Source: Candidatus Melainabacteria bacterium (GTDB lineage Bacteria; Cyanobacteriota; Vampirovibrionia; Obscuribacterales; Obscuribacteraceae). From it: a stretch of 64,000 nt of DNA. The position numbers were made by a program, and so were the translations under genes. This document shows, one piece after another, positions 13,985-48,670 of the stretch. The DNA is taken from contig CAVYFJ010000004.1 in the NCBI GenBank assembly GCA_963767815.1, positions 501,800 to 565,799 of the forward strand, read 5' to 3'. Each line of letters begins with the position of its first letter. Positions within the stretch are counted from its first letter, which is position 1. Below the pieces are notes generated by a model that searched no databases, was not told the origin of the DNA, and saw only the letters and a program-made list of their open reading frames with translations.

Positions 13985-14041
13985 AGGCAGATATTGAAAA
14001 AGACATGAACAAGATTTTTATAGCTCAGTCTAAGCCTTATA

Positions 14042-17155: not shown

Positions 17156-17216
17156 ATGTACCTTTAGTGTAGGAGTCTATGACCTTAATTGGCTGTTTAC
17201 AAATTGCTTTTTCGCT

Positions 17217-17579: not shown

Positions 17580-17586
17580 AAGCACA

Positions 17587-18969
17587 ATGTCTTATTTATC
17601 GCAAATGCTTGCACTCGCCTTTCACAACTGGCTATCAGCGGCAGTGGGTATCGCTTGTGCCATGGTGGTCATCCGTGGCTTTAGTCGCAGCAAGTCTGCG
17701 ACCATTGGTAATTTTTGGCGTGATTTAGTACGCATTACTTTTTATGTACTTTTTCCGATCACGCTGTTTTATGCAATTTTTTTAGTTTCTCAAGGGGTGA
17801 TCCAAACATTTGCTCCGTATTTAACTGTTGCCACCGTGGAAGGGGTGAAACAATTGATTGCTCTGGGCCCGGTGGCCTCTCAGGAGGCAATTAAAAATCT
17901 TGGCACTAATGGTGGTGGCTTCTTTAATGCCAACAGTGCTCATCCATTTGAAAATCCTACGCCACTCAGTAATTTAATTGAAATGCTTTCCATTTTTGCC
18001 ATCCCCGCTGCTTTGACTTACACTTTTGGTTGTCTGGTCAAAGACACGCGCCAGGGGTGGGCCTTGCTTCTGTGCATGTTCGTTTTATTTTTTGCTGGTA
18101 TTGCCGCATGTTATGCGGCCGAAGCCAGCGGCAATCCGCTCATTGCTGGACAGCAAGTTGAAACCTCTACCGGTGTTCTGGGCGATTTAGGCGGCAATAT
18201 GGAAGGCAAGGAAGTACGCTTTGGTCTGGCGGCTTCAACATTATTTGCTGTGGTGACAACTGATGCCAGTTGCGGGGCGGTTAATTGTATGCATGATTCA
18301 TTTACACCATTGGCGGGAATGATTCCACTGCTTAATATGCAATTAGGCGAGCTTATTTTTGGCGGTGTTGGAGCGGGGCTCAATGGCATAATTGTTTTTG
18401 CTGTGTTAACGGTTTTTATTGCCGGCTTAATGGTCGGGCGTACCCCAGAATATTTGGGTAAGAAAATAGAGCAAAAAGAAGTAAAAATGGCGATGCTTTT
18501 TGTCCTCATTGCCGCGTTTTCCATTTTAATTTTTACTGCCGTGGCTACCGCGATCAATTTACCAATTGGCAGTGCATTGAATCCGCCCGGTGCTCCCGTC
18601 AATAATACAAACAATGCCGGGGCGCATGGTTTTTCAGAAATACTTTATGCCTTTTCTTCCGGCACTGCCAATAACGGCTCTGCCTTTGCCGGACTGAATG
18701 CTAATACGCCTTTCTATAATATCTGCCTTGGTGTGGCGATGTTTATTGGCCGTTTCCTCATGCTTGTACCGGTATTGGCTCTAGCGGGATCACTTGCCCA
18801 AAAGAAATCTATTCCAGCCGGCAGTGGCACTTTCCCGACGCATGGCGGTTTATTTATTAGCCTGCTCATTGCCGTTATATTATTAGTCGGTGCTTTAACT
18901 TTCTTCCCGGCACTTTGTCTTGGACCAATTGTCGAACATTTACTCATGCAAAAACATGTACTCTTTTAA
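17587..18969 (+). CDS. kdpA: KdpA, C-terminal 460 aa (frameshifted gene)
   Basis: [67 protein letters not shown]. Confidence 0.9.
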
Positions 18970-18994
18970 AATGACGAAACACATGGAAGAAATC

Positions 18995-19135
18995 GTAGGG
19001 GCACATTGCGTGTGCCCGCTTGAAACGACGTATCCGAATAGAATCGTAGGGGCGAAGCTTCAACGGCATCACTCAGATGCCGTTGTGCCCGCTGTCGCGG
19101 AGAATCGACACCCAAGTGACGAAATATAGGGGCGT
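18995..19135. repeat. REP cluster in the kdpA-kdpB spacer
   Basis: GTAGGGGCACATTGCGTGTGCCCG and GTAGGGGCGAAGCTTC.. variants. Confidence 0.75.
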
Positions 19136-19141
19136 GCTTAT

Positions 19142-19888
19142 ATGGCATCTAATTTGAACATTATTCCCAATAAACGCAAAATAGCTCTCTGGCAGCCGCA
19201 ATTGATTAAGCGGGCGATTTTTGATGCTCTAATCAAGCTTAATCCGGTAACACTGGCCAAAAACCCGGTCATGTTCGTTGTTGAAGTGGGTAGTGTTTTA
19301 ACAAGCATTTTATTTGTGCGCGATTTGCTGGAGCACATACCGATCTCTGATTTGATCTATCAGGGGCAAATTAGCCTCTGGTTATGGTTTACTGTTTTGT
19401 TTGCTAATTTTGCCGAGGCTATGGCCGAAGGCCGGGGAAAAGCGCAAGCCGATAGTTTAAGGCGCAGTCGTCAGGAAACTGCTGCTCGCCTGGAGACAGG
19501 CAACAATAAACACGAGATGATTCCGGCGACTAAACTTAAAAAAGGCAATATTGTACTTGTGCAAGCGGGAGAACTGATTCCTGGCGATGGAGAAGTGATC
19601 GAAGGCGTGGCCAGCGTAAACGAAAGCGCCATCACTGGCGAATCAGCGCCGGTAATTAGGGAAAGTGGCGGCGATCGCAGTGCCGTTACCGGCGGTACCA
19701 CAGTATTATCCGATTGGCTGCGCATAAAAATTACCGCTGAAGCCGGTGAGACTTTTATAGATCATATGATTGCTCTAGTGGAAGGAGCGCAAAGGCAAAA
19801 AACCCCCAATGAAATCGCGCTGAATATCTTACTTGCAGGGTTGACGATTATTTTTCTATTGGCGGTAGTCACGCTTGTTTCCCTATAG
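19142..19888 (+). CDS. kdpB: KdpB P-type ATPase, fragment 1
   Basis: [11 protein letters not shown].., [31 protein letters not shown]. Confidence 0.85.
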
Positions 19889-20828
19889 TGTTTATGCCGT
19901 TCAAGCTGCCAATACTGGTAAGCCGCCTGATATTTATTCTCTGGTTTCTCTTTTGGTCTGCCTCATTCCTACCACTATTGGTGGCTTGCTTTCCGCAATT
20001 GGTATAGCTGGTATGGATAGAGTATTTCAGGACAATATTTTAGCCATGAGCGGTAAGGCTGTAGAAGCGGCTGGTGACGTGGATACTATACTGTTAGACA
20101 AGACCGGGACAATTACCTTGGGCAATCGACAGGCGGTTGAATTTATTCCGGCAGCTAATGTGCCCACTCTTGAATTTACCGATGCTGCTCAATTATCATC
20201 TCTTGCTGATGAAACACCGGAAGGTCGATCAATTGTTGCTCTAGCTAAACAACAAGGTTTTCGTGAGCGCGAACTCGCCAGCGTCAATGCCCACTTTATT
20301 TCGTTTAGTGCTCAAACGAGAATGAGCGGTGTTGATATTGATGGCCGGCAGATTCGCAAAGGGGCGGCGGAGGCAATCGCTAAATTTCTTAAGGCGAACG
20401 GGCTAGACTTGCCCGTGGACGTTGAACAGGAAGTACGGCGCATAGCTCAATCCGGTGGCACACCGTTGGTGGTGGCGGATAATAAAAGCGGCGCTCTGGG
20501 AGTGATTTATCTAAAAGACGTAGTCAAAGGGGGCATGAAAGAGAGGTTTCAGCAATTGCGAGCGATGGGTATTCGCACAGTAATGATCACCGGCGATAAT
20601 CCGCTTACTGCTGCTGCCATTGCCGGCGAAGCCGGTGTCGATGACTTTCTTGCCGAAGCTACGCCGGAAGCTAAAATGCAACTGATTCGCAAAGAACAAA
20701 TTGGCGGTCAGGCTTATTGCCATGACTGGCGACGGCACAAACGATGCTCCAGCTCTTGCGGCTGCCGATGTTGGCTTGGCGATGAATACCGGCACGCAAG
20801 CAGCCAAAGAAGCCGGCAATATGATTGA
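19875..20828 (+). CDS. kdpB: KdpB, fragment 2 (phosphorylation/nucleotide domain)
   Basis: [33 protein letters not shown]. The true frame ends near 20705. Confidence 0.85.
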
Positions 20829-21307: not shown

Positions 21308-21351
21308 TGTTGCGCTATGTTGATGTTGAAACGCGGTACGTACCCGAAATC

Positions 21352-21376
21352 GTAGGGGCGGGGCTTGCTCCGCCCG
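21352..21376. repeat. single REP in the kdpB-kdpC spacer
   Basis: GTAGGGGCGGGGCTTGCTCCGCCCG. Confidence 0.8.
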
Positions 21377-22526: not shown

Positions 22527-24168
22527 TGTTACCGGTTCACGTCATGAAAAGCGCTACCAGGATGTGGAAGAACTGCTCGACGCTGGTATTAACGTCTATG
22601 CCACTTTAAATGTACAACACATTGAAAGTTGCAACGATATTGTTGCTCAAATTATCAATGTTGTTGTGCGCGAAACTGTTCCTGACTCTATTGTTGAAAG
22701 GGCACATGAAATCGAACTTGTAGACATCACGCCGGATGAATTAATTGAGCGCCTGCATGAAGGCAAAGTTTATGTGCCGGATCAAAGTCAAAAAGCATTG
22801 GAGAATTTTTTTAAAAAGGGCAATCTCATTGCCTTGCGTGAGCTTTCACTGCGAGTGGCAGCAGAGAAAGTTGATGTGGACATGCAGCGCTACCGTGAAG
22901 ACCAGGAAATAGAGGCGGTCTGGCCGGTTTCAGAAAAAATTGCCGTCTGTATTAGCGCCAACCCGCTTTCAGCACGGCTTGTGCGAGCCGCCAAGCGCAT
23001 GGCTACTAGCTTACACGCCGAATGGCTTGTGGTTTATGTGGAGACCCCTCGACACTTGAGGCTAACTGCGCGCGAAAAAGACAGATTATATAAGACAATC
23101 AATCTAGCTGAGCGACTAGGTGCGCAATCGGTCACTCTAAGCGGCACAGCAATTGCTGAGGAGTTGATTGCCCTTGCGCAGGCGCGCAACGTGACAAAAA
23201 TAGTGATTGGTAAGGCAACAGGCGGATGGCTGAAGCGAATTGAAGGCAGAATATTTGGTTCGCTTGTTGATCGGGTGATTCGTCTGAGCGGCACAATTGA
23301 CGTTTATGTGATTACCGGTTATCCAATACAACCGGAGCCAACCCAGCGGTATAACTTGCCGGTCAGCCGCTTGAAGATTGAACAATATCTCTATGTTATT
23401 GCAATTGTCGCCCTGGCAACGATTGTTGATCATTTAGTTTTCCACAAATTAAAGCAAGTCAATCTGGTGATGATTTACTTGCTGGCAATTATTTTTTCTG
23501 CCACAAGATATGGTCCTGGCCCATCGGCGCTTGCCTCAATTTTAAGCGTTTTATGTTTTGATTTCTTTTTTGTTCCGCCGTATAACTCATTTGCAATCTC
23601 TGATATCCAGTACTTTCTCACTTTGCTGGTAATGCTCACAGTTGCGCTCACTTTGAGTAGTATCACTGTGCGCAGTAGGCAACAAGCTCAATTGGCCAAG
23701 CACCGTGAACGCCAAACGGCGGCTCTTTATGCTATGACCAGAGAACAAGTAACAGCTGCAAATGTGGAATCAATTCTTGCCGCTTCTTTGAAGCATTTAA
23801 ATGAAGTATTTGACAGCAAAGCTGCTGTCTTACTAGCCAACGAAAATGACTCTTTGAACGTGGACTTTCCATCAGTAAATTCTTATAAAATAGATTCACA
23901 CGAAATGGGGGTTGCCCAATGGGTATTTACCAACAAGCAAATGGCTGGAGCGGGAACATCAACCCTGCCGGGTGCAAAAGCTATCTACTTACCGTTGATT
24001 ACGCCGCGGGGCATCATTGGTGTAATCGGCTTATTACCGGAGCAAAGAGAAAGATTATTGAATCCAGAAGAAATGCATTTTCTTGAGACATTCGTCTATC
24101 AAATTGCCCTCGCTGTGGAGCGTGCCTCAGGAACAGAAATCAAGTCGGATCAACGACCGGACTCGTAG
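22459..24168 (+). CDS. kdpD: KdpD sensor (KdpD-N, Usp, TM, GAF-like) lacking the kinase transmitter domain
   Basis: LIDELAHTN.., Usp-like segment, 4 TM helices, GAF-like end. Stops just before where the H-box should begin. The TAG stop is the TAG of a REP GTAG motif. Confidence 0.8.
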   Translation: MIWMRHLARRPSCVLIDELAHTNVTGSRHEKRYQDVEELLDAGINVYATLNVQHIESCNDIVAQIINVVVRETVPDSIVERAHEIELVDITPDELIERLHEGKVYVPDQSQKALENFFKKGNLIALRELSLRVAAEKVDVDMQRYREDQEIEAVWPVSEKIAVCISANPLSARLVRAAKRMATSLHAEWLVVYVETPRHLRLTAREKDRLYKTINLAERLGAQSVTLSGTAIAEELIALAQARNVTKIVIGKATGGWLKRIEGRIFGSLVDRVIRLSGTIDVYVITGYPIQPEPTQRYNLPVSRLKIEQYLYVIAIVALATIVDHLVFHKLKQVNLVMIYLLAIIFSATRYGPGPSALASILSVLCFDFFFVPPYNSFAISDIQYFLTLLVMLTVALTLSSITVRSRQQAQLAKHRERQTAALYAMTREQVTAANVESILAASLKHLNEVFDSKAAVLLANENDSLNVDFPSVNSYKIDSHEMGVAQWVFTNKQMAGAGTSTLPGAKAIYLPLITPRGIIGVIGLLPEQRERLLNPEEMHFLETFVYQIALAVERASGTEIKSDQRPDS

Positions 24169-24304
24169 GGGCGGGCACAAGTCCGCCCGTGTACTTTCAA
24201 CCGACAGCGCCGGTTAAAGCAGGCGGAGCATTTATGTTTTTGGATTCAGTGGCACCCGCTCGGTATAACTCATATACCTCACGGCCACTGAGCCCCGCCC
24301 CTAC
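24165..24304. repeat. REP cluster: short REP 24165-24190 plus a long-variant REP (reverse orientation) 24219-24304
   Basis: GTAGGGGCGGGCACAAGTCCGCCCG. Reverse complement of the long variant has central hairpin GGTATAT..TTATACC. Confidence 0.85.
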
Positions 24305-31992: not shown

Positions 31993-32050
31993 TTGCGCTA
32001 GCTAGCGCAAGTGTAAAGTGCGTTTTAATAAAGCAAAAAATTGATTATAT
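31993..32050 (+). promoter_or_regulatory. conserved island leader, copy 4
   Basis: Perfect 18-nt palindrome TTGCGCTAGCTAGCGCAA at 31993-32010. GCGCAA-N15-TAATAA (32026-32031). Confidence 0.55.
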
Positions 32051-32430
32051 ATATCTAGTCTTACCGTTTGTCGCACAGTCCAGCGTCGCTGAAAATTATC
32101 AGCCAGTATTAAAAATGCGGCTAGTTGCTTCTACAAGACTGATTTTTTTCTTCCCATTTATTTGGCTTGCAGTTGACATTCTCGCTTGACTTCGCATGGG
32201 CAGAACAGGTTAAGCTAAGGCATCGTGTTTTTTGAGAGTCGAAATTCTTCCTAGTCCTGATTGAATGTCTATTTGTGCTGCCAAACTGAGTGCCTGCGGG
32301 CGCAAGTTGTGTGCTAGTCGCAAATAGGAATTTATTTCGGGACGACGAGGATGACGACGAGTTGTTTGCTCCGGCGAGATCGAGTCGTTCGGTTTGCGCG
32401 GAGCGTGGTGACTTTACGAAGGAGATTGAG

Positions 32431-32793
32431 ATGGGGATCATTCGACGCCGGTTTCAGTTTGGTTCATTAGGGGTCGAAGAGACGCTGGGTGCGGTCAACA
32501 GCCGCTTTCACAATCATGGATGCAGTGGACCGGAGACGGTCTTGCTCATACAGAGTCCAAGTTCGCTGGAGCTGTCAATCAGGGAGCGAGGATCCTCGAC
32601 GCATGTGTCCGGAACGGCAAGATCTCGCGAGGGCGGCTTAGCTGTATTAAACGGCGACCTTGCTGCCTGTCCGGGCTGGCTGCAGGATTATGTTGCCAGG
32701 GCCAGGTACCACCCCGTACACGGCCGGGCGAAAGCTGAACTACCAGGTTCGGCGAACAGTGTATTCAGGACAGGTTCAGGACCGTCAGCTTGA
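32431..32793 (+). CDS. island D protein 1, N-terminal part (probably continues by frameshift into 32660..33010)
   Basis: SD AAGGAG 6 nt before ATG 32431. MGIIRRRFQFGSLGVEETL resembles the N-terminus of island D protein 4. Confidence 0.4.
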   Translation: MGIIRRRFQFGSLGVEETLGAVNSRFHNHGCSGPETVLLIQSPSSLELSIRERGSSTHVSGTARSREGGLAVLNGDLAACPGWLQDYVARARYHPVHGRAKAELPGSANSVFRTGSGPSA

Positions 32794-33010
32794 TTGTGCC
32801 GTGGTGGAACTCTTGAGTCAGCAAGGCGACTTTCAAGCGGCCTTTCTGGAGGTTGACGGCGCGTCCAGCTTCGCCGATTCGCCGGATGACATCGCCGTTT
32901 TTCAGCAGCGGCTTGTGGATTTGCTTGACGAAATTTTCCGTGGTGCGCTCAGGGAAGAGACGCGCACGGAAGAACAGATCGCCTGGCAGTCCATGTATAA
33001 CGCAGTCTAG
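32660..33010 (+). CDS. island D protein 1, C-terminal part
   Basis: The frame shows G-rich first codon positions. C-terminal motif AAFLEVDGASSFADSPDDIAVFQQRLVDLLDEIF is shared with D2-D4. Confidence 0.4.
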   Translation: MLPVRAGCRIMLPGPGTTPYTAGRKLNYQVRRTVYSGQVQDRQLDCAVVELLSQQGDFQAAFLEVDGASSFADSPDDIAVFQQRLVDLLDEIFRGALREETRTEEQIAWQSMYNAV

Positions 33011-33073
33011 CCCCGACCCGGAGGTGTTGTTCGGCGAGCTTGTTTCTGACAGTGCGCGGCTCCGTGCCATGAT

Positions 33074-33262
33074 ATGGGGCATGTCCGGATCCACAAATCA
33101 TACCCCATCGACTTTGTGATCAGCGTCTGCCCCGGTGAGGTCGAGCCACATGCGTGGCTCGACGCCGGGGCATATACAAGTTTCCGTTTGTTCGCTTTCG
33201 AGGAGAATGCACGTGCACGATCCGAAAACTGTCCGGCGTACCTGGGTGATCAATTCCAATGA
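33074..33262 (+). CDS. island D protein 2, N-terminal fragment (likely linked through 33135..33413 to 33394..33834 by frameshifts)
   Basis: ATG-initiated ORF 64 nt after D1. Three overlapping plus-strand frames tile 33074-33834. Confidence 0.3.
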   Translation: MGHVRIHKSYPIDFVISVCPGEVEPHAWLDAGAYTSFRLFAFEENARARSENCPAYLGDQFQ

Positions 33263-33393
33263 GGAGGCTTCCAGAATTCGAGATCGGCTCGAGCACCCTG
33301 GTGCTCTTGAGAGGCATTACCGGTATTGTGGTGCATACACTGAACGTCGCCTGCTGCGCCGGGAACCTGGACCCCTGGGACCCATGATGCAAA

Positions 33394-33834
33394 TTGTTGT
33401 TGTCGATCGTTGACGACGATCTCGAGGATGGAAGCAGTCGGACAATTTCTTGGACGCAACCTACTTCGGTCGGTGCGCCGACAAGTTACTCGTATGACTT
33501 GAGCGATCTTGTCCCGCCGCTATGGGAGTTAATCCGGACGGCAATCAACCCCACGATTGAGTACTCGCTGAATCGTGAGTATTTCCAGGGGCATGCTGAT
33601 AATCTCCGGTCGGCGAATTGTTCTATTGTTCGTTTGACCGCGCCGGGTGCGCAAGAGTCGTGGTTCCTCGACTTCGAGGTCAGCATGATGTGCGACGATG
33701 GCGACGATCGTGTACTTCAGGTTGAGCATGCCCTCGACGTGCTGGTATGTGCGTTGATGGGGCAGGCTCGTCCGCCAGAAGTGACGGTCGACTTTGATCG
33801 CATCATCCTTGAATCCCAGCCGCAACCTGCCTGA
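33394..33834 (+). CDS. island D protein 2, C-terminal part
   Basis: 146-aa ORF containing SWFLDFEVSMMCDDGDDRVLQVEHALDVLVCAL. Its stop is 3 nt before the next ATG. Confidence 0.45.
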   Translation: MLLSIVDDDLEDGSSRTISWTQPTSVGAPTSYSYDLSDLVPPLWELIRTAINPTIEYSLNREYFQGHADNLRSANCSIVRLTAPGAQESWFLDFEVSMMCDDGDDRVLQVEHALDVLVCALMGQARPPEVTVDFDRIILESQPQPA

Positions 33835-33837
33835 AGA

Positions 33838-34614
33838 ATGCCGGACTGTGCGACCAGCAATCGTCGCACAGTGAAAAACGTCCAGCCAATCGAATCCTAC
33901 GCAGTAGCATGGCGCGGTGGATCAAGTCATACGACTTACACCGCGCCATGGCATTTCCCGAGATCGGAGAACCCACAAATGCTATTTCGCCAATCGTGCC
34001 GCTTCCGCATCAGTGATGTGTCCTGCGCCCTTGCGGCTGAGACACTGCAAGGCAATGATCCAAACGGACGTCCTTACCGGCGCCAGGGTACCGAGCAGTT
34101 TCAGTGCTTGCTGTGCCCTGAGCGAATTGGTTCGGCCGAGTGCCTCCTGCTCACGAATGGTCATGACCTGTGGGGCACAACTCGGTCCACCCTGAGCGGA
34201 ATTCTCAGTCGGTGCAGCCGCGAACCCACGGGAAGCACTGGCCCAATGGAGTTCAGGACCGAATTGGGCTCGGACCAGACCCACGACATACTGTCGACTC
34301 TCCTCACCGATACTACGGGCAGACAACTTCTGTCTTACCGACTCACACGTGAAATTTACTTCGGTACCGCCGAATGCTGGGATACCGAAATCGCTCTTAC
34401 CTCCTTGACCGACGGCAGCGAAACCATTGGTGATTATATCGAAATTACCATATGGGGACGGCTGGAGGACAGTAACGAAGAGTGCGAAAAAGCAGGCCGG
34501 TTGATTCCCGGCTTGCGATCGATCATAGCTCAGGGCGTGCGGCAAGACGAGCTGCGTGACTGGCCGCAGATTGCCTACCAGTACCAGCTCGCCAGGTGGG
34601 CGGCAATCACCTGA
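33838..34614 (+). CDS. island D protein 3
   Basis: 258-aa ORF starting 3 nt after the D2 stop. The C-terminal half looks protein-like (GDYIEITIWGRLEDSNEECEKAGRLIPGLRSII). The N-terminal half is less convincing. Confidence 0.4.
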   Translation: MPDCATSNRRTVKNVQPIESYAVAWRGGSSHTTYTAPWHFPRSENPQMLFRQSCRFRISDVSCALAAETLQGNDPNGRPYRRQGTEQFQCLLCPERIGSAECLLLTNGHDLWGTTRSTLSGILSRCSREPTGSTGPMEFRTELGSDQTHDILSTLLTDTTGRQLLSYRLTREIYFGTAECWDTEIALTSLTDGSETIGDYIEITIWGRLEDSNEECEKAGRLIPGLRSIIAQGVRQDELRDWPQIAYQYQLARWAAIT

Positions 34615-34784
34615 ACTGGCCGCAGTCACGCTGATTCCTCACAATGCAGGCTGCTTCTGCAGGAGATGAAAGGTTCTCAAAAGTGATCGCGTCGGAGAGT
34701 ATGCCGAAGACGACAGAGCTGCGTTCATGCGAGTCGCGCGTGCGGCTTGCACCGCAGCATAACCATGTTTCTGGAGGAAATGCG

Positions 34785-35456
34785 ATGATCACAAAGCGCT
34801 TCGCGCTGACAAGTTTCGAGCTTGCTGGAGTCCGACATCAACTAATTGGAAGATCAGATCTATATGCTCATGACACTGGCCAACGTGCTGAACAGGTCCT
34901 TTACCCAGGACCGTTCGGCGAGATCCAGTGGGTCATATGCCAGAAAAATCAATCAGGAATTGCGGAATTGACCTGTCTTCGATACGGTGCGGGAAACCGT
35001 CTGCTGGAAGAGCACCACCAACCGACATCCAGTGCCGGCAACGACGAGCGGATTCTCTATCGCGTGCTTGAGGGCTTGGGGGCGGTGCATGCCATTTCCC
35101 ACTACGTAAATAGGCGCATCTGGACTTTCACTGCGCCTAAGGCACAAGACCAGTTCTGCACCCTCCTCGATGGTCGAGTGTCCGAACTCACGCTTGTCGG
35201 TATCGCGGACCGAAATCAGGAAGAAGTCGCTGGCTATCTCGATGTGTCCATAGAGCGGAGACTAACGGACTTTCCGCAGAAAATGGCGGCACTCTCGCTT
35301 CTGCCTGGCCAGTTGTATCTTTATCTGCTGAACAGTTCTGGCAAAGACGAGCCGCGCAGCCATGAGCAGATCGTCTTTCAGTGCCTGGCAAGCGAAGAAG
35401 TACTCCACGGCGGGACTGTGGGTAAACCGAGGACTCGCATGATCGAATCGGACTGA
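34785..35456 (+). CDS. island D protein 4
   Basis: ATG 34785 with SD GGAGGA. MITKRFALTSFELAGVRHQL.. and AGYLDVSIERRLTDFPQKMAALSLLPGQLYLYL. Confidence 0.5.
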   Translation: MITKRFALTSFELAGVRHQLIGRSDLYAHDTGQRAEQVLYPGPFGEIQWVICQKNQSGIAELTCLRYGAGNRLLEEHHQPTSSAGNDERILYRVLEGLGAVHAISHYVNRRIWTFTAPKAQDQFCTLLDGRVSELTLVGIADRNQEEVAGYLDVSIERRLTDFPQKMAALSLLPGQLYLYLLNSSGKDEPRSHEQIVFQCLASEEVLHGGTVGKPRTRMIESD

Positions 35457-35547
35457 AAACCGATTGCCGCTGCATACGTAAGATCCGGACATCAATGATC
35501 AGGCGAAGCCGGATCCAAGCAAAATGCCCGAGCAATCTTCGGAGGGC

Positions 35548-35600
35548 GAAAGGAAGTGATGGCACCGCCACCACTTCCTTTCGTTTACCTTGGTTTTCTT
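35548..35600 (+). terminator. rho-independent terminator closing island D
   Basis: GAAAGGAAGTG-loop-CACTTCCTTTC followed by a T-rich tract. Confidence 0.7.
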
Positions 35601-35687
35601 TTCTATTTTTGTTTTGCCAAATAAAATTATGCGAGGAGTACTTTTCTTTCACTTAATCAAAAGGACACTGCCAGTGATTCGAAATTG

Positions 35688-35716
35688 TTGCCAATATAAG
35701 TAAGATATGGTATAAA
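35688..35716 (+). promoter_or_regulatory. sigma70-like promoter of the second TA pair
   Basis: TTGCCA-17 nt-TATAAA, about 35 nt upstream of the antitoxin ATG. Confidence 0.4.
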
Positions 35717-35751
35717 GTAATATTGTAAGGAAGTAATACAAGACTACTTTT

Positions 35752-35982
35752 ATGTTAACGCAATCCAGTCGCCTGACGAAAAAATTTCAAACTACTATTC
35801 CCCTGTCCATTCGAAAAGAACTTGGGTTGAAGTCTGGCGATATTATTCACTTCGAACTCCGTGATGGTGAGGCGGTTCTTCATAAAGAGACGCCGTTGGA
35901 TCTAGCCTTTCTGCAAGCACTTGAAGGACAGCTGACTGAATGGCAGTCCGAAGCCGATGAGGAAGCTTATCGTGCCCTTTGA
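35752..35982 (+). CDS. AbrB/MazE-family antitoxin
   Basis: SRLTKKFQTTIPLSIRKELGLKSGDIIHFEL (SpoVT/AbrB swapped-hairpin signature). Overlaps the toxin. Confidence 0.75.
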   Translation: MLTQSSRLTKKFQTTIPLSIRKELGLKSGDIIHFELRDGEAVLHKETPLDLAFLQALEGQLTEWQSEADEEAYRAL

Positions 35983-36319
35983 AGCCGGTGAGATTGTATC
36001 GGTGCCGTTTCCGTTTACTGACCGCTCGGCGCATAAACGCCGTCCTGCTCTTGTGTTGAGTACGAAGTCCTTCAATGATCGGCATATGCATTTAATTTTA
36101 GCCATGGTGACAAGCGCTAAAAATCCGCCCTGGCCAAGTGATATTGGCATTACTGATGAATCGAGTGCAGGACTTTCAAGCCCCTCAGTTATTCGCCTGA
36201 AATTATTTACGCTCGACGAAAGATTGGTGCTTGGTACATTAGGGAAGCTTTCAAAATCTGATAAGGCAGCAATGATGAAACGTATTGCTGTCACTTTGGG
36301 AATAACTGGGCACCGATAA
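35957..36319 (+). CDS. PemK/MazF-family toxin
   Basis: GEIVSVPFPFTDRSAHKRRPALVLS..LILAMVTS. A GTG at 35972 is an alternative start. Confidence 0.75.
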   Translation: MRKLIVPFEAGEIVSVPFPFTDRSAHKRRPALVLSTKSFNDRHMHLILAMVTSAKNPPWPSDIGITDESSAGLSSPSVIRLKLFTLDERLVLGTLGKLSKSDKAAMMKRIAVTLGITGHR

Positions 36320-36589: not shown

Positions 36590-38668
36590 ATGACAGCCAG
36601 ATACGATGTAATTGTTATAGGCGGTGGGCATGCCGGTATTGAGGCGGCGCATGCGGCAGCTAAGCTTGGCTGTGAAACTTTATTGCTGGCGGTGAATTTA
36701 GACACAATCGGCGCCATGCCCTGCAATCCAGCCGTCGGCGGTCCCGGTAAATCGCATTTAGTCAAAGAAGTGGACGCTCTTGGCGGAGTGATGGGCATTG
36801 CTGCTGACGCCACTTATTTGCAGATGCGCACATTAAACATGAGTCGCGGGCCTGCTGTGCAGTCTTTGCGTGCCCAATCAGACAAGCGCGAATATAGCGC
36901 CTATATGAAACGCTTTATTGAGTCATTGCCCAAAGTAAGTTTGCGCCAGGGCATGGTAAAAAAAATATTGAGCGAAAATAATTGCTTAACTGGCGTGGAA
37001 CTGGCATTTGGCGAGCAAATTAACGCTAGAGCAGTAGTGCTTTGTGCCGGCACTTTTTTGGAAGGCACCATCTGGATTGGTCAGGAGACTATGCCTGCCG
37101 GACGAGCGGGCGAATTTCCTGCTCAGGGTTTATCACAAGTTCTCAAAAGCCTCGGCTTTGAGCTGGGCAGGCTTAAAACCGGCACCCCGCCGCGCATTGA
37201 TGGGCGGACGATTGATTACAGCCAATTATCTCTTGTGCCAGGCGATCCTCCCGGTCAATTTTTTTCCTTTTTAAAAGACCGCCCGCAGCTGCCGCAAATA
37301 CCCTGCCATCAAACCCGCACTACAGAGGCGACGCATGAAATAATCAGGCAAAATTTGCATCTATCGCCAATGTATTCGGGCTTAATTCATGGCGCTGGGC
37401 CCCGTTATTGCCCATCAATTGAAGATAAAATAGTCCGTTTTGCGCAAAGAGATAGCCATGGTCTATTTTTAGAGCCGGAAGGGCGCTCCACCTATGAAGT
37501 CTATTTGCAAGGCTGCTCAACAAGCCTGCCCATTGCCGTGCAACAGCAAATTGTTAATTCATTGCCTGGACTGGAAAAGGCAGTTATGATCCGCCCTGCT
37601 TATGCGGTGGAATATGATTATTTGCCGGCTATCCAGTTTAATCATGCTTTAATGGCCAAAAATTTGCCAGGCTTTTTTGCTGCCGGACAGATGTTAGGCA
37701 CTAGTGGTTATGAAGAAGCCGCTGCCCAGGGCATTATGGCAGGCATCAATGCTGCTCTATATGCTTTGAATAAAGCCCCTTTTACTTTGCCCCGCTCATC
37801 TAGTTATCTGGCAACTTTGGTCGATGATTTGGTTACCAAAGAGATTGCCGAGCCTTATCGTATGATGACTTCGCGCTCTGAATATCGCCTCCTTTTGCGC
37901 CAGGATAATGCTGATATCCGCCTGACACCGGCTGGTCGAGAAATTGGACTTGTTGATGAGCAGCGCTGGTCTGCTTTTAATGAAAAATATGAGGCCATAG
38001 ACAAAGAACGCCGCCGCCTGCAATCCACGCGCATCAACCCCACGCCTACCTGGCAAAGAGAGCTGGAGCCCTACGGCGAAGAGTTAAGACAGACAGTCAC
38101 TTTGGAAGAATTATTGCGGCGCCCAAAACTGCCGTATGCCGTGATTGAAAATCTTGCTCCCGGCTATGCCGATCAGGCATTTCCCTGGGCGCAAGAATTG
38201 GAAACCGAGATTAAATATGCAGGCTATATCGAAAGGCAAAAAAACCAAGTTGAGCAACTAGAAAAGTTAGATGGGTTGCCACTGCCGCAAGATATTTCTT
38301 ATCAGTCACTGCTTAATTTGTCTAAAGAAGCGCGCGAAAAGCTCACCCGTATTAAACCTGAAACCGTTGGTCAGGCGGGTAGAATTGCTGGTGTAAGCCC
38401 AGCAGATATTTCAGTGCTTATTGTTGCTCTGGAGATTAACCGCCGCCGACGCTGGAGCGAAGAATCAACGCCTGTCGAAGAACTCGTAGGGGCGGGGCGC
38501 AGTGGCCGAGGCAGGCATCAGGACTCAGCGGCATATGATATATGCCGCCAACGGTCGTCCTGTGCGTCACGGGTGCCACTGAATCCAAAGCATAAATGGT
38601 CCGCCCGCTCGGGGCTACCGGGCGACTCTTCTTTAAACGAGCAGAAACCTGCCCTGGTTTTGGGGTAA
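36590..38668 (+). CDS. mnmG: tRNA uridine-5-carboxymethylaminomethyl synthesis enzyme MnmG, with a REP-encoded C-terminal extension
   Basis: YDVIVIGGGHAGIEAA, GPRYCPSIEDK, AGQMLGTSGYEEAAAQG, GRIAGVSPADISVL. The last ~60 codons read through the REP at 38486-38608. Confidence 0.92.
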   Translation: MTARYDVIVIGGGHAGIEAAHAAAKLGCETLLLAVNLDTIGAMPCNPAVGGPGKSHLVKEVDALGGVMGIAADATYLQMRTLNMSRGPAVQSLRAQSDKREYSAYMKRFIESLPKVSLRQGMVKKILSENNCLTGVELAFGEQINARAVVLCAGTFLEGTIWIGQETMPAGRAGEFPAQGLSQVLKSLGFELGRLKTGTPPRIDGRTIDYSQLSLVPGDPPGQFFSFLKDRPQLPQIPCHQTRTTEATHEIIRQNLHLSPMYSGLIHGAGPRYCPSIEDKIVRFAQRDSHGLFLEPEGRSTYEVYLQGCSTSLPIAVQQQIVNSLPGLEKAVMIRPAYAVEYDYLPAIQFNHALMAKNLPGFFAAGQMLGTSGYEEAAAQGIMAGINAALYALNKAPFTLPRSSSYLATLVDDLVTKEIAEPYRMMTSRSEYRLLLRQDNADIRLTPAGREIGLVDEQRWSAFNEKYEAIDKERRRLQSTRINPTPTWQRELEPYGEELRQTVTLEELLRRPKLPYAVIENLAPGYADQAFPWAQELETEIKYAGYIERQKNQVEQLEKLDGLPLPQDISYQSLLNLSKEAREKLTRIKPETVGQAGRIAGVSPADISVLIVALEINRRRRWSEESTPVEELVGAGRSGRGRHQDSAAYDICRQRSSCASRVPLNPKHKWSARSGLPGDSSLNEQKPALVLG
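38486..38608. repeat. long-variant REP with an internal insertion
   Basis: GTAGGGGCGGGGCGCAGTGGCC..GGCATATGATATATGCC..GGGTGCCACTGAATCCAAAGCATAAATGGTCCGCCCGC. Confidence 0.85.
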
Positions 38669-38788: not shown

Positions 38789-40135
38789 GTGTCGTTTGAC
38801 CTTCGCAAAACCAGACAGACAATATTTGGCCAGAACACAGATTTTTTAATTGGCGAATTGCTCGTAAGAGCTGGGGTAATAAAACAAAGCCAGCTTGATG
38901 AAGCCTTGAAACTGGCCGGTAATAAGCATATGCAGCTCGGGCAGATGCTTATTATGGCTCGCCATATTAGCCCGCGAGATTTACAAGTAGCAATAGATGC
39001 TCAATCCGCGGTACGAGATCATGTTGTGGAGATGAATGTTGCTTTACGCGCTTTAACCAGAGCTTGCCGCTCGGGCACATCTTTTGCTGAAGCGCTGGAC
39101 ATGCAAAGCCAGGAAAGGACTGCTGTCCAACCGACCAATAGACTGGGGGAGTTATTACTTGAGGCAGGTTTGATCGACAATGACCAATTGTCTAAAGCCA
39201 TGCAAAAAAGCCTGTCTACTGGGTTGCCGCTAGGACGAATGCTGGTTCTCAACAGCGTGATTAACGAGGCAATCTTATCCTCTGCTTTGGAGATTCAAAT
39301 TCAGCTCAGGGATGGCACACTTTCGCGGTCAGATGCTATTAGCCGTTTGCGAGTGGTGGCTGGAGCAAAAGTCATTGATCATGCAGGTTCTGCTGATCTG
39401 GAAGAAGCTTTTTTGGTGCACACCAATTTGCCAGCACCACGAAAACAAGGCATTCGCTTGGGTGAACTCTTTGTTCTGGCTGGGATTTTGAGTGAAACAG
39501 ATGTGATGAATGCTTTGGAATTGAGTCTGGTCAACGAGCAGCCAATGGGGCAGGTGTTAGTCGGACATGGCTATATTACACAGCCATTACTTGATGCGGC
39601 AGTTCTACTGCAAGCTCTTGTTGATGGTTCCACCCTGCAGTGCACTCAAGCTGGTCAGTGTTTAGGTAGAGTATATAGTTCTGGAGTTGCTTTGGCTGCA
39701 GCCATAGAATCAGTACTCAGTGAGTCTCCTGACGGCAGCTCCGTTAAATTTCAGGACTTACTCGTCGAACGGCAATTGGTGAGCAGCGAAGGTATAGAAA
39801 CAGCTTTTCAATTGGCCATGGCTAATCCTCGTGTTCTAGTTAAAGTTTTAGAGATGACCGGCTATTTAGATCAGGTTCGCGGCAACCTTACACTTGAATG
39901 CTTTGACACAATCATCAATAACCAGATGAGCAAAGAGGATGCTTTAGCGGTGTTAGATTATTGTCTGCAAACCATACCGCAAAGAATAATTACATTTGAG
40001 GAGGCTGTGCAGGAAATGCAGGGGACAGGGCAATCTGATCCAGCTCAATCTACTGAAGCACCACCGATAACCGCAGAATCGGCCGGTATTATCTATAGTA
40101 CCACTTCTTATCAGTCGGGCCTTCCCCACCATTGA
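38789..40135 (+). CDS. protein with four T2SSE_N/MshEN-like repeats
   Basis: LGELLVRAGVIKQSQLDEALK, LGELLLEAGLIDNDQLSKAMQ, LGELFVLAGILSETDVMNALE, FQDLLVERQLVSSEGIETAFQ. Confidence 0.75.
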   Translation: MSFDLRKTRQTIFGQNTDFLIGELLVRAGVIKQSQLDEALKLAGNKHMQLGQMLIMARHISPRDLQVAIDAQSAVRDHVVEMNVALRALTRACRSGTSFAEALDMQSQERTAVQPTNRLGELLLEAGLIDNDQLSKAMQKSLSTGLPLGRMLVLNSVINEAILSSALEIQIQLRDGTLSRSDAISRLRVVAGAKVIDHAGSADLEEAFLVHTNLPAPRKQGIRLGELFVLAGILSETDVMNALELSLVNEQPMGQVLVGHGYITQPLLDAAVLLQALVDGSTLQCTQAGQCLGRVYSSGVALAAAIESVLSESPDGSSVKFQDLLVERQLVSSEGIETAFQLAMANPRVLVKVLEMTGYLDQVRGNLTLECFDTIINNQMSKEDALAVLDYCLQTIPQRIITFEEAVQEMQGTGQSDPAQSTEAPPITAESAGIIYSTTSYQSGLPHH

Positions 40136-40923
40136 ACCGCCGAAAGAAAATCCAGCAGTTGTTCAGGAACCAACAAGCAGAAGTGGCAGGACGACTGGAA
40201 ACATACCAGCCCTTACGCAATTACAGGCGGAAGCAGAGCTGCTAAATCAAACTACCGAGCCTCCACAGGCAGCGGAGCAAGCCGCACCGCCTGTAGTGCC
40301 CTCTCTTCCCAAACAGCCGCCCAGGGGTAGTCGAACAGGCAAAACAACAGGAAATATACCCGCTCTTACTCAATTGCAATTAGGCTCTGATTTGTTAAGG
40401 CCAACTCCCGCGCAATCTGATCAAGAAAAGCCATCGGCATCATCAGCCTCACTGTCTGGCACTGAACAATCGCTGGCCAATAAACCTTCTGGCTCAGCGG
40501 CCCAACGAAAAACGGTGAGCCTAAAGGCACTACTTACAGGTGAACACATCGGCCGTTGCCACTGCCGGCGGCACAAAAGTGGGATCTGAGCAGCCAGCTG
40601 GCAAAGCAGGTGCCAAACCGGCGCGCGATCCAGGAGGTGCGGCGGATGCGGAAGCGGATGTGGCCACCTCGAAAAAAGATGATGCTCTTGAATTGTCGGA
40701 AAACGAAAAGGCTCTTATTAAAGCAGCCTCGTCATTAACTGCCAGTCCGGAAGATATCCTGACAGCTATGCAATTGGCGGCTCAAAAGGGAAAAGATGTT
40801 CATTCTGAGGAGGAAGATCAGGAACCGGAAACATAGGCTTCTTCCCGCCATTTGATCCGACGTCCGGTCATTGGCATTGGCATGCTCCGGGCCAATTTGG
40901 ATTGATGCCAGATCGTTGGCATC

Positions 40924-41079
40924 GTAGGGGTCGATGCAAGTCGACCCGTGTTCGATGCGCCTCCTCTAAACGACGATTTTGGTTAAATCTAAACGGGCGG
41001 GCTTGCGCCCGCCCCTACGAGTTCGGTCGTATGCGTCGTTCCAACAGGGACAGTGGAGCGGACTTGCGCTCGTCCCTAC
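40924..41079. repeat. REP cluster
   Basis: GTAGGGGTCGATGCAAGTCGACCCG .. ACGGGCGGGCTTGCGCCCGCCCCTAC .. GGAGCGGACTTGCGCTCGTCCCTAC. The last CTA is the stop of the minus-strand kinase. Confidence 0.85.
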
Positions 41080-42317
41080 GATTTTAATGGCAGATAGACA
41101 CTAATGGTGGTGCCGATGCCGGGAGTACTCTGGACTTCGATGCGACCTTTATGGGCGTCGACTATCGCTTTGACTATTGATAGACCTAGTCCGGAACCGC
41201 CGGCTGCCCGCGAACGCGATGGATCTACACGATAAAAACGGTCAAAAACTTGGGGTAAGTTTTCTGCTGGAATACCGATCCCGCTGTCAGATACACAGAC
41301 TTTTGCTTGACGGACATGGGACTCCACCGATATTTTTACAGTGCCACCACTATCGGTGTATTTAAGAGCGTTCTGCAGGAGATTGGCAATGAGTCGTTTG
41401 ATCGCTTCCGTGTCGCCATACAGTTTAATAGATTCGACCGGACTTGCTTTTAAAGTCACTGCCTGCGCTTTGAATAATTCCTCAAAATCGCTTACCACGC
41501 CGGTGACAATGACATCAAGTTCCAGCCAATTTCTGCGTCTTAGAATAAGTGGGCTTTCCATTTTGGCTAACAGCATTAAGTCCCTCACCAGAGTGCTCAT
41601 TCTTTCTGTCGAACGAGTAATTGTCGCCAATCGCGTTTTTGTCTCGTTATTGTTGTCTATATCGGACTCAATCGACTCAGCATTGGCTTGGATGATACTG
41701 ATTGGCGTACTGAGCTCATGCCCCGCGTCGGCCATAAAACGTTGTAATACGGAAAAACTTTTTTCCACTGGGTGAGCTGCTTTACTGGAAAACAAATAAC
41801 CTGCCAGTCCAAATCCTAAAAGAAGAAATGGTGCAATCCTTCCCATGGTGATGCCAAATTGATGAATCGCCCCATCAACATTTTTTAAAGCCAGCTCAAG
41901 CTGCAAATAGCCAATCAGGTTATGTCTCTCATACAGAGGGACTGCATGGACACGAATGTGATAAGTCTCTTCCTTTATATCCTTTTTCTCGCCCTTGAGG
42001 CGCGAGAAGAGCATGGGAATGCCGATGGGACCGTGCACTTCTATTAGCTTTTCGTCTTTATCATAGAGCTGAATTGTGGGCAGTGATCGAAATGGGCCCC
42101 TGTGCATTATTTTCGCCCAATCCTCAAGGCTTGGACGGCTATTGATTGTGCGCACGGCTGGCACTAATTCATCGGTGAGGGCGCTTAGCTCATCATCGAC
42201 CAGTCTGGTCATTGCTGCTCCAAAAATCCAGCAGCCAAACGCGGCTGAAATCGTATAGACAATCATGGTTAGAAAAATAAACCAGAAAGTTAATTGCCAG
42301 CGTAAATTTCGGAACAT
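41076..42317 (-). CDS. sensor histidine kinase (2 TM, HisKA, HATPase_c)
   Basis: 413 aa. FMADAGHELSTPIS, NALKYT, DSGIGIP, GGSGLGLSIVKAIVDAHKG. Confidence 0.9.
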   Translation of the reverse strand: MFRNLRWQLTFWFIFLTMIVYTISAAFGCWIFGAAMTRLVDDELSALTDELVPAVRTINSRPSLEDWAKIMHRGPFRSLPTIQLYDKDEKLIEVHGPIGIPMLFSRLKGEKKDIKEETYHIRVHAVPLYERHNLIGYLQLELALKNVDGAIHQFGITMGRIAPFLLLGFGLAGYLFSSKAAHPVEKSFSVLQRFMADAGHELSTPISIIQANAESIESDIDNNNETKTRLATITRSTERMSTLVRDLMLLAKMESPLILRRRNWLELDVIVTGVVSDFEELFKAQAVTLKASPVESIKLYGDTEAIKRLIANLLQNALKYTDSGGTVKISVESHVRQAKVCVSDSGIGIPAENLPQVFDRFYRVDPSRSRAAGGSGLGLSIVKAIVDAHKGRIEVQSTPGIGTTISVYLPLKS

Positions 42318-42329
42318 TATATATTTAAA

Positions 42330-43001
42330 TTATTGTTCAAACTTGTATCCCACACCATGAATAGTGCGAATGACCGTATCGGATCCGTCCCCGCCTAGTT
42401 TCTTTCGCAGAAGTTTTATGTAGGTTCTAATTGTGTCTGAACAAGCCATTGTGTCGGATGCCCAGATGCGCTCTAGTAATGCCTCTGCGCTAAAAACTTG
42501 ATTAGGGTGGCGCATAAAAAATTCCAACAAACTATACTCACGTGGTACCAAATGTATTTCCTTGCCAGCCAGCGTTACTTTTCGGGCCAAAGTATCCAGT
42601 TTTAGTTCACCACTTTTTAAAACCGAATCACTCGATTGTATATTCCTTCTCAGCAATGCTCGCACACGAGCGGAAAGCTCTTTCAAATGAAATGGCTTGG
42701 TCAAATAATCATCTGCGCCGGCGTCTAGTCCCATTTCTTTGTCTTCAATTTGGGACTTGGCCGTCAACATAAGAATGGGCGTTGTTCCACCTGCCTGGCG
42801 AAAACGTTGGCAAACTTCCATGCCATTTAGTCCTGGGATCATCCAATCAAGGACAATCAAATCAAATTTGTAGACACGCAATTTGTCCAGCGCATCCAAA
42901 CCATTCTCGCTCAGCTCTACGATATGCTGATCTTTGGATAGCCAGTCTCTAACTGGATAAGCCAGATCAAGTTCGTCTTCAACTATTAGTATTTTAGCCA
43001 T
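42330..43001 (-). CDS. OmpR-family response regulator
   Basis: 223 aa. MAKILIVEDE, DLIVLDWMIPG, LTAK, winged-helix end IRTIHGVGYKFE. Confidence 0.92.
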   Translation of the reverse strand: MAKILIVEDELDLAYPVRDWLSKDQHIVELSENGLDALDKLRVYKFDLIVLDWMIPGLNGMEVCQRFRQAGGTTPILMLTAKSQIEDKEMGLDAGADDYLTKPFHLKELSARVRALLRRNIQSSDSVLKSGELKLDTLARKVTLAGKEIHLVPREYSLLEFFMRHPNQVFSAEALLERIWASDTMACSDTIRTYIKLLRKKLGGDGSDTVIRTIHGVGYKFEQ

Positions 43002-43404: not shown

Positions 43405-43448
43405 TTAGCACGAACACCAGACCCTCACACGAATCGTAATGGCAAATC

Positions 43449-43496
43449 GTAGGGGCAGATTGTAGGGGCGGGCGCAAGTCCGCCCGCTTCTGCAGA
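43449..43496. repeat. REP copies (one truncated, one full)
   Basis: GTAGGGGCAGATT followed by GTAGGGGCGGGCGCAAGTCCGCCCG. Confidence 0.85.
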
Positions 43497-45789: not shown

Positions 45790-45819
45790 CAGGATAAGAC
45801 GGCGTACATGCTTGAAATT

Positions 45820-45876
45820 GTAGGGGCGGATTGCATCCGCCCGTTGATGTAACGGGCGCACATGCCGCGCCCCTAC
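45820..45876. repeat. REPIN (inverted REP doublet)
   Basis: GTAGGGGCGGATTGCATCCGCCCG-ttgatgta-ACGGGCGCACATGCCGCGCCCCTAC. Confidence 0.9.
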
Positions 45877-47773: not shown

Positions 47774-48670
47774 ATGGAAAAACGTGTCTTAGGCAAAACT
47801 GGTTTATCAGTAAGCATTCTTGGCTTTGGTGGCGCAGAAATTGGTTTTCAAAACGCCACGCCAAAAACTGTTGAGAAGCTATTGGCTGAGGCGCTCGAAG
47901 CCGGCTTGAATGTTATTGACACCGCTGAATGTTATGTCAATAGTGAAGAGTTAATTGGCAACGCGCTTGGCAAGCGGCGAAAGCATGTGCATATATTTTC
48001 GAAATGCGGTCATGATACAAATTATATGGACAATGCCTGGACGGCCAAAGATATCGAAATGTCTATCGATCGAAGTTTGACGCGCCTGAAGACTGATTAT
48101 TTGGATCTCCTCCAATTGCATAGCTGTTCGGAAAATATTCTCAAACAAGGCGAAGTGGTTGAGGCTGTGCGCAAAGCCAAACGTGCCGGCAAGACCCGCT
48201 TTATTGGCTATAGTGGTGACGGGCAGGCTGCTTTGTATGCCATCAAGTCTGGTGCTTTTGACACTTTGCAAACATCAATAAATATTGCCGATCAAGAAGC
48301 GCTAGAGCTGACATTACCTCTGGCGATGGAACAAAATATGGGTGTGATCGCCAAAAGACCATTGGCTAATGCCGCTTTTAGATATAAGAGCAAGCCGGAT
48401 AATGAATACCATGCTCCTTACTGGGAACGCTTGCAGAAGCTCCAATATGACTTTGTTAATGGTGATATTAACTTGGCAGCGGCCACTGCCTTGCGGTTTA
48501 CTCTCAGCGTGCCGGGCGTGCATACAGCCATAGTGGGGACAGCAAATGCCGGGCGATACGCAAAAAATGCTAAACTTCTTGCCGCTGGACTTTTATCAAA
48601 AGACGAATTTGACTCTATTCGCTCTCGCTGGCAAAATGTGGCAAAGCCGCAATGGATTGGGCAACAATAA
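47774..48670 (+). CDS. aldo/keto reductase
   Basis: MEKRVLGKTGLSVSILGFGG, IDTAECY, YLDLLQLH, IGYSG. The ORF is open from 47753. Confidence 0.88.
   Translation: MEKRVLGKTGLSVSILGFGGAEIGFQNATPKTVEKLLAEALEAGLNVIDTAECYVNSEELIGNALGKRRKHVHIFSKCGHDTNYMDNAWTAKDIEMSIDRSLTRLKTDYLDLLQLHSCSENILKQGEVVEAVRKAKRAGKTRFIGYSGDGQAALYAIKSGAFDTLQTSINIADQEALELTLPLAMEQNMGVIAKRPLANAAFRYKSKPDNEYHAPYWERLQKLQYDFVNGDINLAAATALRFTLSVPGVHTAIVGTANAGRYAKNAKLLAAGLLSKDEFDSIRSRWQNVAKPQWIGQQ

Follow-up and report, generated by a model that had tools for sequence, protein, structure and literature searches.

Positions 31993-35600 of the 64,000-nucleotide (nt) stretch of Candidatus Melainabacteria DNA studied here (the window, meaning that whole stretch) raise the question of what is encoded by a block richer in guanine and cytosine (GC) than its surroundings, here termed Island D, and under what control it stands. 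The original prediction proposed a leader-driven plus-strand operon of four tandem paralogues, D1-D4, and this proposal is supported by protein-level paralogy without a DNA repeat and by codon statistics. The block is predicted to be a plus-strand gene cluster of four cistrons that share a C-terminal module. It is held here, with moderate confidence, to be a single co-regulated and probably horizontally acquired accessory operon of ~3.6 kb whose function is unassigned. The open reading frames (ORFs) proposed for D1-D4 are all present, and the features of the island, including its Shine-Dalgarno (SD) sequences, are as follows.

31993-32031, plus strand: leader of Island D, a promoter-like motif after which an AT-rich stretch continues to ~32200
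31993-32010, plus strand: palindromic operator of the leader, TTGCGCTAGCTAGCGCAA, an inverted repeat in an alignment of 18 copies
32026-32031, plus strand: -10-like hexamer TAATAA (consensus TAATAT), 15 nt downstream of the operator, in a geometry fixed across the copies
32038-32430, plus strand: predicted long 5' untranslated leader, AT-rich to ~32200
32431-33010, plus strand: D1, ~192 amino acids (aa), SD AAGGAG and ATG at 32431, passing from frame 1 to frame 2
33011-33387, plus strand: D1-D2 spacer and presumed N-terminal half of D2, with fragments in frames 2, 0 and 1
33388-33834, plus strand: C-terminal part of D2 (D2c), the most divergent copy of the shared module
33845-33950, plus strand: two intercistronic hairpins between D2 and D3, one with a 10-bp stem (33845-33872), the other with a perfect 12-bp stem (33908-33950)
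33979-34614, plus strand: D3, 211 aa, intact, with GGAG and ATG, a gene call in the source genome (P0004)
34785-35456, plus strand: D4, 223 aa, intact, with GGAGGA and ATG, present in the source annotation (P0002)
35547-35610, plus strand: intrinsic terminator, with a 17-bp stem at 35547-35583, a 3-nt loop and a U-rich tail

The evidence for paralogy is restricted to the C-terminal ~100 aa of the encoded proteins. BLASTP aligns D3 with D4 at E=2e-4 and the D1 segment D1b with D4 at E=1e-3. A hidden Markov model (HMM) of D3 and D4 recovers D1b at E=3.4e-5 as its sole match when all 1161 six-frame segments of the window are searched, and an HMM of D1, D3 and D4 recovers D2c at E=0.0023. Smith-Waterman comparisons against shuffled sequences give p values of 3e-5 for D1-D3, 2e-5 for D3-D4, 7e-4 for D1-D4 and 3e-4 for D1-D2. 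The C-terminal module that had been proposed by eye for all four proteins is therefore upheld, and profile comparison among D1-D4, which had been set as a test that could overturn it, returned significant similarity. The four modules are pairwise only 14-27% identical, and R, D, L, E and I are the only invariant residues of the four-way alignment, which contains no conserved catalytic-looking residues. A resemblance between the N-termini of D1 and D4 had also been claimed and did not survive, since comparison of the N-terminal halves (D1, D3 and D4) scores no higher than shuffled sequence (p 0.5-0.98).

The similarity has the strand and the codon structure of coding sequence. An all-versus-all comparison of six-frame segments confines it to plus-strand frames, with no paralogy among the minus-strand segments of the island, and blastn finds no internal DNA repeat in Island D. 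In alignments guided by the amino acid sequences, nucleotide identity is 0.27-0.51 for the first two codon positions and 0.25-0.30 for the third. The first two positions are more similar than the third in five of the six pairs, the exception being D2c-D4 (0.27 for the first position, 0.29 for the third). On a codon log-odds score trained on Obscuribacterales genes of 52% GC, where held-out genes average 0.19 and off-frame windows -0.55, D1b scores 0.185, D4 0.136, D2c 0.129 and D3 0.088. A sliding frame plot gives the order of frames as 1, 2, ambiguous, 1, 1 and 0, in agreement with the frames proposed here.

Two of the four cistrons, D3 and D4, are intact in the present assembly, and D1 and D2 are disrupted. 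D1 consists of an ORF at 32431-32793 in frame 1 and another at 32660-33010 in frame 2, the joining of which needs a +1 frameshift between 32651 and ~32710, and its C-terminal module lies at 32705-33007. The SD sequences announced before D1 (AAGGAG, 32419-32424) and D4 (GGAGGA, 34773-34778) were found, each 6 nt 5' of its ATG. D2 had been given as 33074-33834 in three frames. The fragments exist, but they amount to a description of ORFs, as the N-terminal half (33011-33387) is unassignable by homology: the N-terminal profile is matched in none of its frames, the frame plot is ambiguous there, and the frame-1 path through D2 (33259-33834) has an in-frame TGA at 33385-33387. The ORF given for D3, 33838-34614, is likewise present, but the predicted start at 33979 is favoured over 33838 because it is the one in the source annotation and is preceded, 9 nt 5' of its ATG, by an SD-like GGAG (33966-33969).

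Longer forms can be drawn for D3 (258 aa, beginning at 33838) and D4 (270 aa, beginning at 34644). Exactly 141 nt (47 codons), each time beginning with a start codon, are open in-frame upstream of the SD-ATG of D1 (32290-32430), D3 (33838-33978) and D4 (34644-34784), and these three extensions are weakly similar to one another (p=0.036). Their equal length could reflect coincidence, dual starts or a fixed-length spacer, and the bases at 32290-32430, being open in the D1 frame, could form an N-terminal extension of D1. The short forms, which start as in the source annotation, are favoured because the similarity among the extensions is weak, the codon scores of two of them are poor (-0.04 for the D3 extension D3x, 0.03 for the D4 extension D4x) and the hairpins between D2 and D3 are strong.

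The signals at the two ends of the block agree with what had been proposed for them. The leader copy and the AT-rich spacer behind it are in place; the operator TTGCGCTAGCTAGCGCAA is a local variant of the lineage consensus TAGCGC-N5-GCGCTA, and transcription is predicted to start near 32038. The strong terminator at the end of the block is confirmed, with a free energy of -31.4 kcal/mol (z -5.4) and a stem followed by UUUACCUUGGUUUUCUUUUC, so that a GC-rich hairpin stands directly before a U-tract on the transcribed strand, as in intrinsic (Rho-independent) terminators. Strong structure is also predicted between D2 and D3, where the fold of 33835-33981 has a z of -5.0 and that of 33660-34000 a z of -4.1. 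The hairpins at 33845-33950 have no U-tract. They could represent an element of RNA processing or stability, or an attenuator placed between the broken cistrons D1 and D2 and the intact cistrons D3 and D4.

The leader is not confined to Island D. Its consensus, in which 17 nt separate the inverted repeat TAGCGC-N5-GCGCTA from TAATAT, was derived from 18 copies, six in the window and 12 on metagenome contigs, and similarity among the copies is limited to ~45-55 nt (nhmmer, blastn). The copies in the window are the following.

10051, 24372, 31993, 45948 and 49403, plus strand: leader copies
27208-27142, minus strand: leader copy upstream of a leucine-rich-repeat (LRR) gene

All six are oriented toward GC-richer ORFs that begin 230-440 nt downstream. 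Pfam finds no domain in the ORFs behind the window copies except the LRR protein, one of these ORFs is a database singleton, and these downstream ORFs are unrelated to the D family and to each other, with no paralogy between different leader islands of the window. An exact-pattern scan of metagenome contigs located the motif on 12 of them (L081-L092). Nine have enough downstream DNA, and on seven of these a block of 0.6-2.4 kb with 54-66% GC lies ~250-350 nt past the motif, against a background of 40-45% GC. The payloads include a GGDEF cyclase (orthologous on L083 and L084), a major facilitator superfamily (MFS) transporter (L090) and several orphans. The two GGDEF orthologues are 46% identical, compared with 74-77% for a flanking host gene, and their proportion of nonsynonymous differences (pN) is 0.42 versus 0.22. 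Close orthologues of the MFS payload occur within the clade, and the next matches are 31-42% identical; the few named organisms among the more distant matches are high-GC Actinomycetota.

A fixed spacing to the -10 hexamer, unrelated downstream genes and an orientation toward those genes are the features of a promoter box, and they are found at six of six window copies and on seven of nine evaluable metagenome contigs. By its position, the leader resembles a site for a dimeric regulator that would overlap the -35 region and be followed by a good -10 hexamer. The motif is, on this sequence evidence, a predicted lineage-wide promoter/operator that would also drive ordinary genes such as those of the GGDEF cyclase and the MFS transporter, and a leader-driven position therefore does not by itself imply a conflict system. 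No conserved element was found in 14 of the 5' leaders, where no k-mer is enriched above shuffles; the motif is absent from 80 Obscuribacterales or cyanobacterial mnmG loci; and a literature search for it returned no match. Elsewhere in the window, an OmpR-type two-component pair is encoded at 41076-43001.

GC-rich islands occur in the clade independently of the leader, since in a more distant relative (L093, 8500-14200) a 5.7-kb block whose GC content is 50-56% contains the MFS orthologue as well as DAO, arginase and phosphatase genes, and the leader motif is absent from that block. A strand-specific mutational origin of the GC richness was rejected, as the payloads show no strand asymmetry in base composition beyond that of host genes.

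The window is assigned to a non-photosynthetic relative of cyanobacteria, as indicated by its MnmG (36590-38668), which shares 73-75% identity with proteins from metagenome-assembled genomes (MAGs) of Candidatus Obscuribacterales. The contig on which the window lies is 977,641 bp long. The mean GC content of the window is ~44%, and that of related Obscuribacterales loci is 52-57%. The GC-rich block that had been delimited at ~32200-35590 is confirmed: in 300-nt windows, GC is 0.51-0.60 over 32200-35500 compared with 0.38-0.46 in both flanks. The spacers (55-61% GC) are similar to the cistrons. The whole block, spacers included, is of foreign composition, and Island D for that reason most likely entered the genome by horizontal transfer long ago. 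It occupies a variable interval between conserved pyrimidine genes and mnmG; the syntenic interval differs in content in relatives and contains no D homologue there. No donor was found for Island D, nor were an integrase or flanking repeats.

No relative of the D family is detectable outside the source genome. D4 is a singleton among 5.8e9 clusters in a word-indexed search, and an exhaustive profile search of 1.84e9 representatives returned only D3, D4 and a D1 fragment, all from the same genome; a Kelch/BTB protein (P0006) in the same search was rejected as spurious, a repeat artefact. Pfam, PADLOC, PHROGs and NCBIfam match none of the D ORFs or the antisense ORFs, the metagenome contigs hold no relative of the D4 query, a check that had been proposed for the family, and tblastn against phages and plasmids finds none either. 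A profile search of the Protein Data Bank (PDB) gave only one marginal match (1xvi, E=0.03). The structural check that had been proposed was equally uninformative: AlphaFold models of D4 and D3 reach a predicted local distance difference test score (pLDDT) of 41.2 and 40.6, respectively, and Foldseek returns nothing at E<=0.001. In these low-confidence models the C-terminal module is a helix and a three-stranded meander, followed by further helices, and the N-terminal halves are variable and predicted to be disordered. The D proteins have acidic isoelectric points (pI 4.3-6.1) and lack a signal peptide and any hydrophobic or transmembrane span. The D family is new and restricted to a single genome, and the locus that encodes it is of a generic kind.

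In the operon favoured here, a palindromic operator overlapping the -35 region and a near-consensus -10 hexamer (31993-32031) would drive transcription through a 5' leader of ~250-390 nt and D1-D4 as tandem cistrons to the strong intrinsic terminator that would close the unit. The product of each cistron would be soluble and acidic and ~190-225 aa long, variable in its N-terminal half and conserved in a ~100-aa C-terminal module. The acquired block would have come under a lineage-wide, regulator-dependent promoter that also serves other GC-rich, fast-evolving accessory genes. Control by one regulator, horizontal origin and polycistronic expression are what we infer from these features. The most speculative part of the proposal is that the D proteins act by binding partners, as adaptors, inhibitors, immunity-like or effector-like proteins, and not as enzymes, a guess made because they have no conserved catalytic-looking residues, no signal peptide and variable N-termini.

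Several points count against the operon as described. Its promoter, its organisation as an operon and the start codons of its genes are predictions, horizontal transfer is inferred from base composition, and the guess of partner binding draws on what the proteins lack and not on any positive sign. The D family offers no homologues from which purifying selection could be gauged. The topology described for the C-terminal module is weak, the pLDDT being low. The first D1 segment, D1a, has a codon score of -0.03, under the level of real genes, and half or more of the array may be non-functional, D1 and D2 being disrupted.

The last point leads to the strongest rival, that Island D is a relic, an acquired set of paralogues that has lost its function and is in recent decay, with D3 and D4 remaining open through stop-poor GC-rich DNA. 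This we regard as unlikely on balance, with an appreciable weight retained since D1 and D2 are broken. Island D has ~3 disruptions in 3.2 kb, compared with a host background of ~1 per 8-9 kb (the counts are small). The frameshift in D1, the untraceable N-terminal half of D2 and its in-frame TGA, the lowish codon scores of D3 and D1a, and the lack of homologues that could demonstrate constraint all fit decay. D3 and D4, however, are intact over 211 and 223 codons with SD and ATG kept, the promoter motif and the terminator are intact, and a C-terminal module that is recognisable despite saturated DNA similarity speaks for long past constraint. Host housekeeping genes are frame-broken as well, so some of the disruptions may be assembly indels.

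Single-base frame changes split several conserved genes of the host, among kdpB (19142-20828, at a TTTCCC run), recD2 (6603-8619), a TPR gene (56158-59894) and a porin gene (12279-13395), and 13400-17590 contains only short ORFs with BNR-like fragments. Such frame breaks in conserved genes point to indel errors in the assembly or, alternatively, to a genome with many pseudogenes, and they bear on the reading of the D1 and D2 disruptions.

Considered on its own, Island D amounts to one more uncharacterised, genome-restricted family of an uncultured lineage, which is common and gives little mechanistic insight, although its two intact copies could be expressed and make a reasonable target for experimental structure determination. 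Its most interesting aspect is the lineage-wide link of a palindromic promoter with GC-rich, fast-evolving genes, which lies partly beyond the coordinates of the island. The promoter/operator motif is searchable and predicts GC-rich, rapidly diverging accessory genes in related metagenome contigs. Its regulator, if identified, would provide a handle on how non-photosynthetic cyanobacterial relatives control acquired genes and might explain why leader genes stay GC-rich in an AT-richer genome. A bolder extension, which we think distinctly unlikely, is that the palindrome-plus-TAATAT promoter is a dedicated system for fast-evolving genes of foreign composition, in which one regulator serves dozens of GC-rich islands whose GC content is actively maintained, Island D is the largest of them, and the D proteins are a new fold family that serves as effectors or immunity proteins in inter-organism conflict.

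The original prediction took tandem arrays of this kind as typical of immunity or effector families, and neither assignment gained direct support: there is no adjacent toxin, no match in Pfam, PADLOC, PHROGs or NCBIfam and no recognisable fold. An orphan array of immunity genes, whose products would neutralise toxins delivered by competitors, is improbable. Island D resembles the immunity arrays of polymorphic toxin systems in that its genes are tandem and divergent and encode small soluble, apparently cytoplasmic paralogues without catalytic motifs, and it lies in a variable region beside a toxin-antitoxin module. It differs from them in its lack of a toxin, a recombinase, conserved intergenic repeats and a known immunity family: no polymorphic toxin gene of the Rhs, contact-dependent inhibition (CDI), type VI secretion system (T6SS) or type VII secretion system (T7SS) type was found among the neighbours or the other window ORFs scanned, and no D protein belongs to an Imm, SUKH or similar immunity or defence family in Pfam, PADLOC or NCBIfam. 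Of three features of such arrays, only the tandem, divergent, small cytoplasmic paralogues are present; an adjacent toxin and a known family are not. The D family is also found in one genome only, whereas immunity families are usually widely shared. A SecB-like chaperone of a toxin-antitoxin-chaperone (TAC) system was considered and rejected. Such chaperones likewise have a toxin-antitoxin pair next door, but the D genes belong to a transcription unit of their own, upstream of that pair; Foldseek aligns the D3 model (pLDDT 41) with SecB and Rv1957 without significance, at E 0.03-0.07 and template modelling (TM) scores of 0.16-0.29, hhalign against Escherichia coli SecB gives a probability of 0.2%, and Pfam SecB (PF02556) is not matched.

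Secreted effector paralogues in a promoter-box regulon, by analogy with the hrp-box, PIP-box and PmrA regulons, are comparably doubtful. The hrp box with HrpL, the PIP box with HrpX and the PmrA box of Legionella and Coxiella define promoter-box regulons of accessory or effector genes. As in these, the leader is a short box at a fixed distance from the -10 hexamer, before many scattered genes that are unrelated, rapidly evolving and often orphan, an LRR protein among them, and the N-terminal halves of the D proteins are variable and predicted to be disordered. Unlike them, the leader box belongs to neither the sigma type nor the direct-repeat type but has the form of an inverted repeat (TAGCGC-N5-GCGCTA), and two of its targets, an MFS transporter of the inner membrane and a GGDEF cyclase that is also a membrane protein, are not effectors. 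It is linked to no secretion system, and the 64-kb window contains none except for a sub-threshold TrbI-like match. A further comparison is with horizontally acquired islands of lineage-specific (ORFan) tandem paralogue families. These share with Island D an atypical composition of genes and spacers, the absence of homologues elsewhere, tandem duplication with deep divergence, and a variable interval with an adjacent toxin-antitoxin module. Island D departs from them in being GC-richer than its host, where most bacterial ORFan islands are AT-richer, in having no integrase, tRNA or flanking repeats, and in a promoter/operator common to several unrelated islands.

Two further readings concern the coding organisation itself. 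That the island is a single long gene, encoding a protein of four repeats and broken up by indel errors in the assembly, is very improbable. D1a, D2b, D2c and D3 all lie in frame 1, a single TGA divides D2c from D3, and single-base breaks, one of them in the TTTCCC run, do occur in host genes. The spacers, however, have stops in all frames, and the TAG that terminates D1 is succeeded by 60-150 nt in which no frame can be traced; SD and ATG are kept before D1, D3 and D4, the spacer extensions score poorly as coding sequence, and strong hairpins fill the D2-D3 spacer. Least credible of all, and largely refuted, is a large structured non-coding RNA or a set of minus-strand genes with the plus-strand ORFs as artefacts of GC-rich DNA: ORFs do lie on both strands (e.g. 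33982-34629 on the minus strand), antisense frames score alike in places and the island is slightly more structured than control genes (mean z -0.65 versus -0.03 to -0.28), but paralogy is seen among plus-strand frames only, codon-position asymmetry is that of coding sequence, terminator and SD are oriented for the plus strand, the leader appears to drive bona fide protein genes elsewhere, and the RNA reading fails because the fold z is only slightly lower than in controls and Rfam has no match over the window (gathering threshold) or even over the island at E<=10, a tRNA scan also being empty.

The neighbours of Island D are an M20 amidohydrolase, MazEF and MnmG. The MazEF-like pair that had been noticed at 35752-36319 is confirmed and consists of the following genes.

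35752-35982, plus strand: MazE-like antitoxin (Pfam PrlF/MazE antitoxin, 2.5e-8)
35957-36319, plus strand: MazF/PemK-like toxin (Pfam PemK, 5.2e-16)

The two genes overlap by 26 nt, in keeping with a type II MazEF module, and the pair has host-like GC and forms a transcription unit separate from Island D. An orthologous mazEF region occurs on a metagenome contig (L085, 615-1205, 74% nucleotide identity to window positions 35712-36270), where a leader copy stands ~95 nt from mazE and is oriented away from it. The site beside this mazEF therefore seems to be a recurrent spot for leader-driven units. A second, unrelated MazE/MazF pair (11098-11828; NCBIfam MazF, 1.1e-36) lies directly downstream of the leader-driven ORF 10486-11025, an arrangement that mirrors mazEF after Island D.

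A repetitive extragenic palindromic (REP)-like element (...ATCGTAGGGGCGGGCGCAAGTCCGCCCG...) and a longer repeat of 64-102 nt are present in many copies in the window, at the following positions.

2774-3037, 5175-5465, 6067-6116, 18986-19055, 21326-21376 and 24143-24189: REP-like or longer repeats
38570-38609, 40895-41104, 43440-43486, 45811-45843 and 54228-55375: REP-like or longer repeats, continued

An IS200/Y1-transposase-like ORF (5575-6087) adjoins a repeat cluster, which suggests that the window holds a system of REP elements and a REP-associated tyrosine transposase (RAYT). The protein encoded at 38789-40135 has three MshE-type motifs that bind cyclic di-GMP (c-di-GMP; NCBIfam, 2.1e-33) and a weak DUF4388/PATAN match, and a GGDEF protein is encoded at 48652-49374. 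Together with the GGDEF payloads on L083 and L084, these proteins hint at c-di-GMP signalling around the leader islands.

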